64,000 nucleotides of DNA from an uncultured Verrucomicrobiae bacterium. Lineage in GTDB: Bacteria > Verrucomicrobiota > Verrucomicrobiia > Opitutales > JABDGR01. A program made the position numbers and the translations under genes. The stretch covers positions 160,001 through 224,000 of the forward strand of contig CAVXVB010000005.1 of NCBI GenBank assembly GCA_963765205.1. Direction: 5' to 3'. This document shows, one piece after another, positions 57,692 to 60,944 of the stretch. The notes beneath the pieces were generated by a model that was not told where the DNA came from, did no database searches, and saw only the letters and a list, made by a program, of their open reading frames with translations. Numbering within the stretch: position 1 is the first letter of the stretch; every line of letters starts with the position of its first letter.

Positions 57692-59791
57692 ATGTCCGTC
57701 CCCGTTCCCGGATCCCAGCCTGACACCGCCCACCTGCCAGCTTATTGCGCCTCGCGCTTCCGCGCCGTGCGCCGACCCACCCGCGAGGTCAAGGTTGGCG
57801 TCGTCGGCGTCGGCGGCGCGAACCCCCTGCGTGTGCAGTCCATGACGACTTCGCTGACTCAGGACGTGGCGGCGACCGTGCGCCAGACCCTCGGCCTGGC
57901 CGAGGCCGGTTGCGAAATCGTCCGCATCACGGCGCCGAACAAGGAGGCCGCGCGCGCGCTCAAGGAAATCCGCGCGCAAGTCACCGCCGCGGGGTGGGGG
58001 CAGTTGCCACTCGTGGCCGACATCCATTTCCTGCCCGCCGCCGCGATGGAGGCCGTCGAGCACGTCGAGAAGGTGCGCGTGAACCCAGGCAATTACGCCG
58101 ACAAGAAGAAATTCGCGGTCAAGGAATACTCCGACAATGAATACGAGTCCGAACTCCAGCGGCTGCACGACGCGTTTTCGCCGCTGGTGAAGCGGGCCAA
58201 GGAACTCGGCCGCGCGCTGCGCATCGGCACCAACCACGGCTCCTTGTCCGACCGCCTGATGAACCGCTACGGCGACACGCCGCTGGGCATGGTCGAGAGC
58301 GCGCTCGAATTCATCCGCATCTGCCAAAGCCACGGCTTCCACGACATCATCCTCTCGATGAAGGCCAGCAACCCGAAGGTGATGATCGAGGCCTACCGCC
58401 TGGCCGTTTCGAAAATGGCCGTCGAAAATATGTATTATCCGCTCCACCTCGGCGTCACCGAGGCCGGCGAAGGCGAGGACGCCCGCATCAAAAGCGCCAT
58501 CGGCATCGGCTCGCTGCTCATGGATGGCCTCGGCGACACCATCCGCGTCTCGCTCACCGAAGACGCCATTTACGAAGTGCCCGTCTGTCAGGACCTCGCC
58601 AAGCGCGCGCACGCGCTCTGGGAACGCGGCAAGGAATTGCCCGACCGCGAAGCGCCGGACGCGATTGACCCGTTTACCTACACGCGGCGCAACGTCACCC
58701 ATTTGCATTTTGGCGAAAGCTGCGAAGTCTCGCGCGAGCAGCCGCCGCGCGTCATCATCCCCGCCGCGCGGCCCCTGGCGCAGCACGCGGAAATCGTCAA
58801 GGACGTGCTGAAAATTCACGCGCGCAACAAGGAGACGAAGGTCGAGGGCTTGTTGGTCGCGCTCACGGAACCAGGCGATTTGGCGCAACTCGCCACCTTG
58901 CAGCGCATCCTTGCGCCGACCGTGAAATTTTTTGTCGTGGACTTGCCATCGGACAACGACGGCGCCGCGCTGCGCGGCTACCCGCTCCCGCCCGCGCCGA
59001 CCGTCTGGGTGCGCCGCTTTGAAAAAGGCGACGAAGCCGAGGCGAAAATCGCCGCCACGCTCCTTGATTACGCCGCGCGCACGGGCGGTTATGTCGCCGT
59101 GGACACGACGGCCGCGGCGCTCGCCGGCGAATTCGGCGCGGCCCTCGTCCGCCATCCCGCCGCAGACCGGCTGATTTTGACGCAAACCGGGTGCGAGGCG
59201 CACACCCACGCCGTCGGCGGCTACCGCGCGCTCGCGCGCGAGGCGGCGAAGCGCGGCCTGCGCGCGCCGCTCTGGATCCGCCACACCGCCGCGCAAGTCG
59301 TCATCTCGGAAAACTTTTTCACCGCCCGGCTGCTCGAAGCCTCAATGGTTGCCGGCGGCCTCTTGTGCGACGGCCTCGGCGACCTGCTCAGCGTCGAGAC
59401 CGAGCCGGTCCGCGACAAAACCGTCGCGCTCACGTATAACATTTTGCAGGGCGCGCGCACGCGCTCGACGAAGACGGAGTTTGTCGCCTGCCCGAGCTGC
59501 GGGCGCACGCTCTTCGACCTGCAAAGCACCACGCAGAAAATCAAAAGTCGCACCGGCCATTTGAAGGGCGTGACCATCGCGGTCATGGGCTGCATCGTCA
59601 ACGGCCCCGGCGAAATGGCCGACGCGGACTTCGGCTACGTCGGCGGCGCGCCCGCGAAGGTCAACCTTTACGTCGGCAAGGAATGCGTGAAGTATAACAT
59701 CCCCGAAGCCGAAGCGGTGGACAAATTGGTGGACCTCATCCACGAACACGGCAAATGGGTCGAGCCGGAGTTAGTGCCGGCGGGGGTATAG
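57692..59791 (+). CDS. ispG: HMBPP synthase, long three-domain form
   Basis: VQSMT, VADIHF, RVNPGN, GTNHGSLS, HLGVTEAG, CPSCGR, MGCIVNGPGE. Confidence 0.97.
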   Translation: MSVPVPGSQPDTAHLPAYCASRFRAVRRPTREVKVGVVGVGGANPLRVQSMTTSLTQDVAATVRQTLGLAEAGCEIVRITAPNKEAARALKEIRAQVTAAGWGQLPLVADIHFLPAAAMEAVEHVEKVRVNPGNYADKKKFAVKEYSDNEYESELQRLHDAFSPLVKRAKELGRALRIGTNHGSLSDRLMNRYGDTPLGMVESALEFIRICQSHGFHDIILSMKASNPKVMIEAYRLAVSKMAVENMYYPLHLGVTEAGEGEDARIKSAIGIGSLLMDGLGDTIRVSLTEDAIYEVPVCQDLAKRAHALWERGKELPDREAPDAIDPFTYTRRNVTHLHFGESCEVSREQPPRVIIPAARPLAQHAEIVKDVLKIHARNKETKVEGLLVALTEPGDLAQLATLQRILAPTVKFFVVDLPSDNDGAALRGYPLPPAPTVWVRRFEKGDEAEAKIAATLLDYAARTGGYVAVDTTAAALAGEFGAALVRHPAADRLILTQTGCEAHTHAVGGYRALAREAAKRGLRAPLWIRHTAAQVVISENFFTARLLEASMVAGGLLCDGLGDLLSVETEPVRDKTVALTYNILQGARTRSTKTEFVACPSCGRTLFDLQSTTQKIKSRTGHLKGVTIAVMGCIVNGPGEMADADFGYVGGAPAKVNLYVGKECVKYNIPEAEAVDKLVDLIHEHGKWVEPELVPAGV

Positions 59792-59814
59792 CAAACCGGC
59801 CCAGTATCCACGGA

Positions 59815-59842
59815 TTGACGTAACGCAGCTTTGTGCTATTTT
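59815..59842 (+). promoter_or_regulatory. Sigma70-like promoter (likely leaderless)
   Basis: TTGACG-N16-TATTTT with TG extension; ATG follows 6 nt later. Confidence 0.55.
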
Positions 59843-59848
59843 AAGATA

Positions 59849-60127
59849 ATGACTCTCCGCCAGAAAATCACCCGCATCAAGCGCACGTTGCGCAAAGACC
59901 CACAGGCCACCTGCCCGCGGCTAGAATTGCGCGGAGTCACTTGGAAAAAGCACTCCAATTACAAGCACACCACCCGCGCCTGGGACAAGGCGCGCATCGA
60001 ATTGGGCCTGGCCACGCCGCTCGATATCCAGCGAGAAAATTCCGCCTTTCGTTTCGACCCGAAATTTCCACCGCGCATCTTGCGTTTCAGCACCCATGCC
60101 CCCGTTCGATCCCGCCGCGTTTCATGA
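59849..60127 (+). CDS. Small basic protein, putative antitoxin
   Basis: 92 aa, overlaps the downstream NTase-like gene. Confidence 0.6.
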   Translation: MTLRQKITRIKRTLRKDPQATCPRLELRGVTWKKHSNYKHTTRAWDKARIELGLATPLDIQRENSAFRFDPKFPPRILRFSTHAPVRSRRVS

Positions 60128-60854
60128 GGTTTTTCAGGCTTTGAACGCGCTGCCGATTGTCGGCGGGCAAGCGATTAATGCCTGGGCGGAGCGGTATCTT
60201 CCCCGGGAGCCGGCTTTGCAGGAATTTATCCCCTTCCTTAGCAAAGATGCGGATTTGTTTGGCGAACGCGTGCAGATTCAGCGCGGGCCGCCCCCGCCCG
60301 GCTGGGTGGTCGCTTATTATTCCGAGCCTCGCCAGTCCGCAGTGGCGCTGTTGACCAAGGATTTGGCCCAGGGCGAACAATTGCGCGTCGAGGTCATGCG
60401 CGCCGTCCATGGTCTGGATCTCCATGATCTGAGTGACGCCACGCTGGTCGAAATCGCGCCGGGCCGCGTCTACCGCTTGCCTTCGCCGCTGCGCCTGATC
60501 AAGGCCAAAATCGCCAATGTCCACGACTTGACCCGCCACGAACGCCCGCAGGACCTCAAGCATGTGCGGATGCTCGTGCTAGTCTGTGCGGCATATCTGC
60601 GCGAACTTCACGCCGCCGTGTGCGCCGGCCAAGCCCCGGAGCGCAGCCTGATCGACGCGTTGCAGGAATTGGACAAGCTCCTTCGCTCGCCCAAAGCCCT
60701 CGCCATTGCAGCCCGGCACCGCGTGGCGCTCACGCCTGCACTCCCGCTTGACCTGGCGGCGGATCAGATCCCAAAACTCGCCGCATTTTATACGCGCCGG
60801 TCTACAGAGGCAGGCGGAAAAGCCAAGAAACCCCGCTCCCGGCGCAAACCATAG
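60096..60854 (+). CDS. Nucleotidyltransferase-fold protein (putative toxin)
   Basis: IVGGQAINAWA...SKDADL, IKAKIAN...RPQDLKH. Confidence 0.7.
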   Translation: MPPFDPAAFHEVFQALNALPIVGGQAINAWAERYLPREPALQEFIPFLSKDADLFGERVQIQRGPPPPGWVVAYYSEPRQSAVALLTKDLAQGEQLRVEVMRAVHGLDLHDLSDATLVEIAPGRVYRLPSPLRLIKAKIANVHDLTRHERPQDLKHVRMLVLVCAAYLRELHAAVCAGQAPERSLIDALQELDKLLRSPKALAIAARHRVALTPALPLDLAADQIPKLAAFYTRRSTEAGGKAKKPRSRRKP

Positions 60855-60944
60855 GACGCGGTTTTCATTGACTTGCATGGCCAATGGGTTGAGCCTGAGT
60901 TGGTGCCCGCGGGGGAGAAAGGATTTTCTTATGGCTGAACTAAA

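Follow-up and report, generated by a model that had tools for sequence, protein, structure and literature searches.

An orphan ispG ending behind a probable toxin-antitoxin cassette in an uncultured Opitutales bacterium

The window is a 64,000-nt stretch of contig CAVXVB010000005.1 (positions 160,001 to 224,000) from an uncultured bacterium of the Opitutales, phylum Verrucomicrobiota. It contains ispG (GcpE), followed by two small open reading frames (ORFs) and then by a second, orphan copy of the last ispG codons. The two ORFs encode a basic 92-aa protein and a nucleotidyltransferase (NTase) and, judged by sequence and predicted structure, form a probable toxin-antitoxin (TA) module. The recurrence of this layout behind core genes of related bacteria suggests that these cassettes bring along the gene ending of a relative and displace the previous one, with no recombinase of their own involved.

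The repeated end of ispG and the cassette between the copies

57692..59791, + strand: ispG (GcpE), 699 aa, intact, the target gene (Pfam PF04551, E 1.4e-124)
59747..59791, + strand: left repeat, the functional ispG tail, native-like to 59767
59768..59772, + strand: GAGTT, an identical 5-nt stretch (twin at 60897-60901), polarity switch point and putative crossover site
59815..59842, + strand: sigma70-like promoter match, TTGACG-16-TATTTT, just 5' of the cassette (consensus match; 3 found vs 0.9 expected in shuffles)
59849..60127, + strand: basic protein of 92 aa and putative antitoxin (at several other loci, homologs immediately precede the NTase)
60096..60854, + strand: 252-aa Pol-beta-type NTase with a MenT1-like fold, full length, putative toxin (predicted model, pLDDT 94)
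60876..60920, + strand: right repeat, the orphan ispG tail (33/39 in the core, 60876-60914), its Val-stop apparently decayed to GAG AAA
60915..60938, + strand: EKGFSYG and a stop, probable read-through of the old stop and spacer (no known allele; spacer closest to the post-stop DNA of L059)

The ispG gene is 88-93% identical to full-length ispG in four same-genus genomes and ends in HGKWVEPELVPAGV and its stop (59747-59791). The orphan region reads HGQWVEPELVPAGEKGFSYG to a stop (60876-60938). Its core, 60876-60914, matches the last 13 ispG codons before Val at 33 of 39 nt. A recount agrees with the original prediction that five of the six mismatches are synonymous third positions (59749, 59761, 59767, 59773, and 59779). 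The sixth is a first-position change at 59753 that replaces K with Q and is the only non-synonymous mismatch in the core. Directly after the core, the orphan also departs by V>E and by loss of its stop. To the left, a local alignment weakly extends the similarity to 59736/60865, 11 nt past the NTase stop, for a total of 51 nt (score 58; best of 200 shuffles, 35). The 18 nt left of the core are 9/18 identical, which 2.9% of random 18-mers equal or better.

The two tails lie 1129 nt apart. The best other ungapped 39-nt match is 23/39 in the window and 27/39 on both strands of the 4.02-Mb genome. Only the two copies exceed 27/39 genome-wide, so the repeat is not a multicopy element. The orphan tail behind the cassette is real. 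Misassembly, which the original prediction had named as one possible refutation, is rejected on zero-difference contigs from runs of two studies that cover the junctions. Run X1, possibly the source sample, provides 59585-60589 and 60586-61060, a second run of the same study (X2) provides 60751-61071, and a run of the second study (X4) provides 60833-60983. The ispG-cassette junction is covered by one run and the junction of NTase, orphan, and the ORF at 60945 by three. None of the listed contigs crosses both repeats, and no RNA data are listed as holding the locus.

The unit flanked by the repeats is composed of 1129 nt and the two ORFs, which overlap, and has no recombinase. Neither ORF has a Pfam match, and the 92-aa protein also has none in PADLOC or Atlas. 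Homologs of the 92-aa protein (27-59% identity) lie upstream of the NTase at six other aligned loci; some loci carry a different partner. The NTase is single-copy in the genome and equal in length to an 82% identical homolog. The motifs GG, DxD, KA(K), and R.QD..H are invariant across 47 sequences of its family, and none of these 47 members is matched by a Pfam or NCBIfam NTase profile, DUF1814/AbiEii included, at E 0.1.

The best Foldseek match of the NTase model is MenT1 (E 2.4e-5), the top fold match being MenAT1 of Mycobacterium tuberculosis, whose toxins are DUF1814 NTases (PMC7450476; PDB 8an4/8an5). Both have a short upstream partner (68 aa there, 92 here), the Pol-beta-like GG and DxD, and conserved C-terminal K and D residues. 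In contrast, the NTase is only 18% identical, with a TM score of 0.43/0.54 and a root-mean-square deviation of 9.4, and its family lacks an NTase profile. What is shared with MenAT systems is a conserved small upstream partner and, in the predicted model, a Pol-beta NTase fold with metal-binding motifs; what is missing is the DUF1814/AbiEii profile. The orphan lies in the NTase frame directly after the NTase TAG (window 60855-60938). This shared frame is probably due to chance, because it is absent at the uvrC locus L032.

Decay and polarity of the orphan copy

IspG endings were compared in 122 listed proteins, made up of the best 120 of 232 matches and two cluster members, and including the window's own IspG and one 165-aa fragment. 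The original prediction expected a second lineage whose IspG ends PAGEKGFSYG. No such allele appears: 0/122 listed proteins end in EKGFSYG or carry GQW (HGQW), and 0/7 metagenome loci do so with a pattern that permitted K and Q. All 12 related DNA alleles end in Val-stop or Ala-stop, and none in EKGFSYG. The orphan GAG AAA is two changes away from the usual Val-stop. Of 13 post-stop spacers compared, that of the close relative L059, which has the same IHEHG variant, gives the best alignment with the orphan's (score 11, next 0), a likeness that could partly be convergence on a ribosome-binding site. EKGFSYG is most likely the read-through of a decayed Val-stop. Since 116/117 scorable IspG proteins have K, not Q, the best explanation of K>Q, V>E, and the missing stop is that the orphan decayed once it was displaced.

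A literal allele would be a lineage with IspG ending in HGQWVEPELVPAGEKGFSYG and followed by the full gene at 60945. In its favor, the reading frame stays open until a stop that lies 6 nt upstream of a genuine gene start, and the genus is thinly sampled. Against this stand the 122 proteins and 12 DNA alleles that lack the ending, and the two changes that turn the usual Val-stop with an L059-like spacer into the peptide. Such an allele is hardly credible. A genome with ispG directly followed by a homolog of the 60945 ORF was not found.

The 12 related alleles also indicate which copy is native at each site. At the left four mismatches, ispG has the majority base in 12, 12, 9, and 10 alleles and the orphan base is found in 0, 0, 1, and 0. 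At 59773, 59779, 59788, and 59791, the orphan base is found in 11, 7, 10, and 11 of 12, and that of ispG, in the codons TTA, CCG, GTA, and TAG right of 59772, in 0, 5, 0, and 1. TTA (1.7%) and GTA (2.4%) are rare codons for their amino acid in this genome. The switch from ispG-native to orphan-native falls in GAGTT (59768-72 / 60897-901). The orphan does not look like the intact allele of one lineage: on the left it resembles none of the relatives and on the right it follows their consensus, and ispG shows the reverse. This reciprocal polarity is what one crossover between the resident gene and a circle with a diverged tail predicts, and is suggestive only.

Linear allele capture by homology-facilitated illegitimate recombination (HFIR) would place a homologous joint upstream in ispG and an illegitimate joint in the resident tail. 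The whole orphan would then be the resident's and the whole functional tail the donor's. HFIR gives an equal layout and synonymous divergence, requires no crossover in a short repeat, and fits the ispG pair of G020 (described below) equally well, where no close relative is available for polarising. The competence-associated families ComEC and DprA are found in the genome, though they only make uptake plausible. However, the left half of the orphan matches almost none of the 12 relatives and that of ispG is consensus, and true HFIR gave deletions in Escherichia coli, in 4/60 events (PMC3240628). HFIR is regarded as distinctly unlikely at this locus.

The DNA behind the orphan is composed of two further features.

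60945..61105, + strand: 5' part (53 codons, 43.5% GC) of a gene from an unnamed accessory family, cut at the protease end (HMMER family matches)
61106..61471, - strand: small aspartyl-protease-like gene (PF13975 weak, below cut-off)

The orphan TGA (60938) is separated by 6 nt from the ATG at 60945. The accessory gene start placed there by the original prediction is real, but the gene is truncated: its similarity to a family of mostly ~130-160-aa proteins stops after the first 53 aa (135 matches, best 61-63% identity). A search among longer proteins was blank; the full HMMER search gave these homologs. At 61106, the ORF runs up against the protease gene, which is convergent and has its 3' end there. 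The fragment is probably an earlier resident. Within window 60915-60948, AAAGGA precedes a five-codon mini-frame, MAELK and a stop, whose stop overlaps the 60945 ATG; it may be what is left of a deleted earlier gene whose start and end became fused.

The ispG 3' flank is a variable site, because the DNA right after the stop differs in each of the 12 related alleles. The protease gene is an older resident of this site, since it is also found downstream of ispG in G002 and G009. In the relatives, there is one tail copy followed by other downstream DNA, with the protease alone in common, in 2/7 genomes. None of these seven genus or family genomes has an orphan ispG tail (best second match 24/39; two contigs are short). 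The protease ends TGEPKIAV-stop (window 61106-61130, minus strand) and has AAGPVIAA... in G002 and G009; here, too, the final codons may be a replacement that came from the side of 60945. The L058 metagenome contig has a different aspartyl-protease-like gene directly behind ispG on the same strand, and small genes of this type recur at the ispG 3' site. On the other side of ispG, between it and an M50 peptidase (window 55992-57595), are a DUF1801-like gene, DUF4870, and a YafQ toxin with a small upstream gene.

The same layout at other loci

G020, from another Opitutales family, carries ispG, a 234-aa PEP-CTERM-like gene, a 331-nt orphan ispG tail (82%), and a small gene with a DUF6036-like NTase. 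Over 107 codons, the rate of synonymous change (dS) between the two copies is 1.05, that of non-synonymous change (dN) is 0.054, and dN/dS is 0.05 (P 6e-9 vs the neutral null). The orphan has a few disabling changes and its own in-frame stop (KWVEVK vs KWVEEP before the stop). The copies therefore diverged under selection. Judged by this pair, allele capture at ispG does happen. A long-lived whole-gene duplicate that was trimmed later is an alternative. Polarising G020 failed, with no close relative (best 74% DNA identity) and with equal G+C at third codon positions in both copies. The NTase pair behind this orphan agrees with the original prediction that older cassettes are pushed downstream; the part of it in which ispG leads directly into a 60945 homolog found no such genome.

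The uvrC gene is a second target. In G401, uvrC is followed by the same cassette family (58-59% identity) and, 11 nt past the NTase stop, by an orphan uvrC segment of 93 nt. G410 has uvrC, a RelE-like pair (by inspection; the toxin is without a Pfam match), and a 231-nt orphan uvrC tail; 9 of the 13 differences fall within the last 27 nt, and the functional copy has A/T at 7 of these 9. G447 has uvrC and a Phd + RelE-like pair, with a 55-nt repeat that begins 1 nt past the toxin stop and lies over two convergent gene ends. No orphan tail is seen at uvrC in G503. The genome of the window (G000) has a third target, rny (RNase Y), whose 3' end is duplicated over 92 nt at 94.6% on contig C5 (528026 and 530348-530440; L126:1635-1727 and 4049-4141). 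Between these repeats lies a hybrid sensor-kinase gene. Two changes in the orphan are non-synonymous, and the functional copy contains the rare codon AGG. In six cases (this locus, G401, G410, G447, L065, and L089), the repeat begins 1-17 nt past the toxin stop.

Neutral target duplication would start from an exact copy of the target end, made for example by replication template switching, after which the orphan decays at random and the functional tail drifts synonymously. Under the corresponding null, synonymous sites change in both copies and other sites in the orphan alone. The synonymous excess at the window's locus is modest, and the null is rejected weakly (P 0.03); for the G020 ispG pair, the rejection is strong. 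Gene ends vary among relatives (32-37/39 matches), as neutral drift would have it, and three of the five tested pairs fit the null. Against it, the four sites with a minority base in ispG are all located right of 59772, two of them making the rare TTA and GTA. A plain neutral copy is rather unlikely. That the orphan is a displaced gene end is supported, and with it the original claim of allele capture as such, though the orphan is decayed DNA and does not look like the intact allele of a second lineage.

Repeats were also scored around other members of the NTase family, with a threshold score of at least 45 (reverse-complement scores reach 34). Loci were obtained for 30/38 matches. Of 36 loci, one was too short to score, and duplicate or partial loci (L035, L036, L045, L048-L052) were left out. 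A flanking direct repeat is found at 10/35 scorable loci (9/34 without this one). Of same-sized ORFs of the window's genome, 20/816 pass (19/815 as controls; Fisher P 4e-7 vs 9/34). The nine repeat-bearing loci are made up of two with decayed tyrosine-recombinase-like gene tails, one at uvrC, and six not tied to gene ends. At the former two, L065 (G139) and L074 (G130), the NTase pair lies at the 3' end of a tyrosine-recombinase-like gene, and behind the pair is a frameshifted copy of the catalytic C-terminal part of that gene, 100 and ~240 nt long. No tRNA target was found at 13 NTase-family loci.

Site-specific integration by an integrase acting in trans would make the repeats attL and attR of a reduced island. 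The short identical core at the switch and the synonymous replacement tail resemble icd/icdC (PMC13626634), the genome has 17 integrase matches, and two family loci lie at integrase gene ends. However, there is no integrase in or near the unit; a phage-integrase search (other recombinase families were not searched genome-wide) finds the nearest match, the sole one on the contig, ~175 kb off. The family's targets are unrelated to one another: ispG, uvrC, integrase ends, and intergenic DNA. Their repeats measure ~50-330 nt, and no common core was noticed. Post-stop DNA differs in each of the 12 relatives, with no orphan in those examined. An integrase in trans is considered very unlikely.

A uniform tail test was applied to scored loci of both genes. 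For ispG, 3/28 match (the window's own, G020, and G023, the last dropped), and for uvrC 2/28 (G410 and G401, the latter chosen for having a tail); there are 0 reverse-complement matches. The test misses G447, whose repeat extends past the stop. The dropped copy in G023 (L010, 3483-3537 / 3638-3692) is an exact 55-nt ispG end across a 100-N scaffold gap and was rejected as a possible scaffolding artefact; it is possibly that or an unassembled young insertion. Outside ORFs of the window's genome, tails give 3 matches vs 2 for mid-gene pieces, both of the latter in repetitive ORFs. A 301-genome ispG-tail search, unreliable for short orphans, finds extra matches among the genomes listed only in the window's own genome, G020, and G239; the last has three ispG C-terminus matches in a 1-Mb genome. 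On contig C9 of G000 (~1487200-1489100), the end of a gene, which we take to be comM/YifB, is repeated over 57 nt at 75% beyond a low-GC helicase island. The end of the helicase is itself duplicated, over 95 nt, around a 202-aa convergent gene.

A proposed route of arrival and its meaning

The reading that we lean toward, as slightly more probable than improbable, is a recombinase-free cassette with a long target duplication, integrated by single crossover of a circularised donor fragment that carried its own tail. The target duplicate would have come from a relative and not been copied from the target. In the donor, the cassette would lie right behind the core gene. A fragment made up of the donor's last codons and the cassette would enter the cell and be circularised by an illegitimate joint just past the toxin stop. 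As the polarity suggests, a single exchange between the resident tail and the ispG tail on the circle would then integrate the fragment. Functional ispG would end with cassette-borne codons, and the resident codons, stop, and spacer would be pushed behind the cassette. The orphan has since decayed by K>Q, V>E, and loss of the stop, as comparison with relatives shows. Insertions at 3' ends would survive because the incoming tail restores the gene, which would select for synonymous differences. Toxin-antitoxin addiction may oppose loop-out between the repeats.

A number of results weigh against this single-crossover reading. The polarity has P ~0.07 once the two orphan-derived right-end sites are counted and is for this reason only a hint. 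The locus P of 0.03 takes no account of transition bias or post-hoc boundaries, and after polarising, only 3/6 orphan-derived changes are synonymous (ungapped count), which speaks for neutral duplication. The repeat is short (39-51 nt), and the crossover would lie in 5 identical nt. Such a stretch is a poor substrate for RecA. Neither an empty-site genome nor a donor genome turned up, and four runs of low-depth contigs list no circle or empty-site junction, a negative that carries no weight. Neutral duplication is not rejected for uvrC in G401 (w 0.42, P 0.61), for G410 (w 0.15, P 0.056), or for rny (w 0.18, P 0.27). Among the other NTase-family loci, 25/34 are without a repeat at threshold, the six untied repeats may include multicopy ones, the loci are not independent (three pairs at 89-97% identity), and the control ORFs come from one genome. 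As for generality, a credible orphan lies within 1.6 kb at 2/28 ispG and 2/28 uvrC loci, and the window's genome has no overall enrichment of tails (27/1379) vs mid-gene pieces (23/1379).

The closest published class is insertion with long target duplication, described for restriction-modification (RM) genes by Furuta, Abe, and Kobayashi (2010), with repeats of 24-423 bp and left-right identity of 83/96 to 100% (Table 3; PMC2853133). Both types have a small selfish-type gene set without a mobility gene and long, variable, imperfect direct repeats that are unique in the genome. In many cases a start or stop lies within the repeat, and the target stays intact. By the definitions of that class, the window's locus has a repeat above 30 bp (39-nt core at 85%; 51 nt aligned) that is not multicopy and an insert below 20 kb without a mobility gene. 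An empty-site genome with one copy and both flanks, a further mark of the class, was not found among the relatives compared. The cargo differs, with a 92-aa ORF and NTase here, RelE/ParE- or Phd-type pairs and others elsewhere, and no restriction enzyme. The double-strand breakage by cargo suggested for RM genes is for that reason not applicable. The targets are core-gene 3' ends in Opitutales, absent from Table 3, and the available sections of that paper contain no analysis of codon-position divergence or of the native copy. The locus works like the long-target-duplication class but is no RM case. New against the known class are the toxin-antitoxin-type cargo, the core-gene 3' ends, and the allele-level divergence. 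No description of TA cargo or of Verrucomicrobia cases of such insertion was found in a literature search short on subscription journals and supplements.

Prophage e14 has its own integrase. At icd/icdC, e14 supplies a functional core-gene 3' end and leaves a diverged, largely synonymous C-terminal fragment at its far end, and loop-out yields a chimeric gene (PMC13626634). The window's locus may work alike, with a functional tail from the element and a displaced tail at the far end, for which the polarity (P ~0.07) is a hint. Unlike e14, a 15-kb prophage with one fixed site, the unit is 1.1 kb, has no integrase, and belongs to a family with several unrelated targets. In E. coli, 56/60 integrants of recircularised incoming DNA gave a duplication product by polymerase chain reaction, and the 14 that were sequenced had target duplications of 109-950 bp, interpreted as a circle integrating by single crossover (PMC3240628). 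The proposed route likewise combines a homologous with an illegitimate joint and duplicates the target. It was a laboratory conjugation construct with identical homology, in contrast to the natural, diverged copies and shorter repeat here. The H47 genomic island is small and without a recombinase, and is excised between short direct repeats independently of RecA (PMC5426353). Excision is demonstrated for H47, whereas the locus here is known from its sequence alone.

To our knowledge, the arrival of chromosomal TA pairs at new sites without a transposase or integrase is poorly explained. For repeat-flanked RM genes, experimental evidence of release and re-infection is lacking according to Furuta et al. 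(PMC2853133). Repeats that are coding make the question of arrival testable on sequence data alone, because codon position separates selection from decay and relatives reveal the native copy. As the second copy in G020 appears to be a separately evolved allele, "duplication" would at least sometimes be capture, with no cutting by the cargo needed. By the same pair, the last codons of core genes can be foreign.

A wider proposal, tentative and rather doubtful, is that TA pairs and other small cargo of Opitutales move by a recombinase-free "tail-swap". The cargo would be welded to the last ~20-30 nt (variably longer) of a core gene, cycle between chromosome and circle via the repeats, and re-enter relatives by one crossover. 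If this is true, older cassettes would be stacked behind datable orphan tails, and the C-terminal codons of ispG, uvrC, and rny would be replaced across species boundaries (up to dS ~1).

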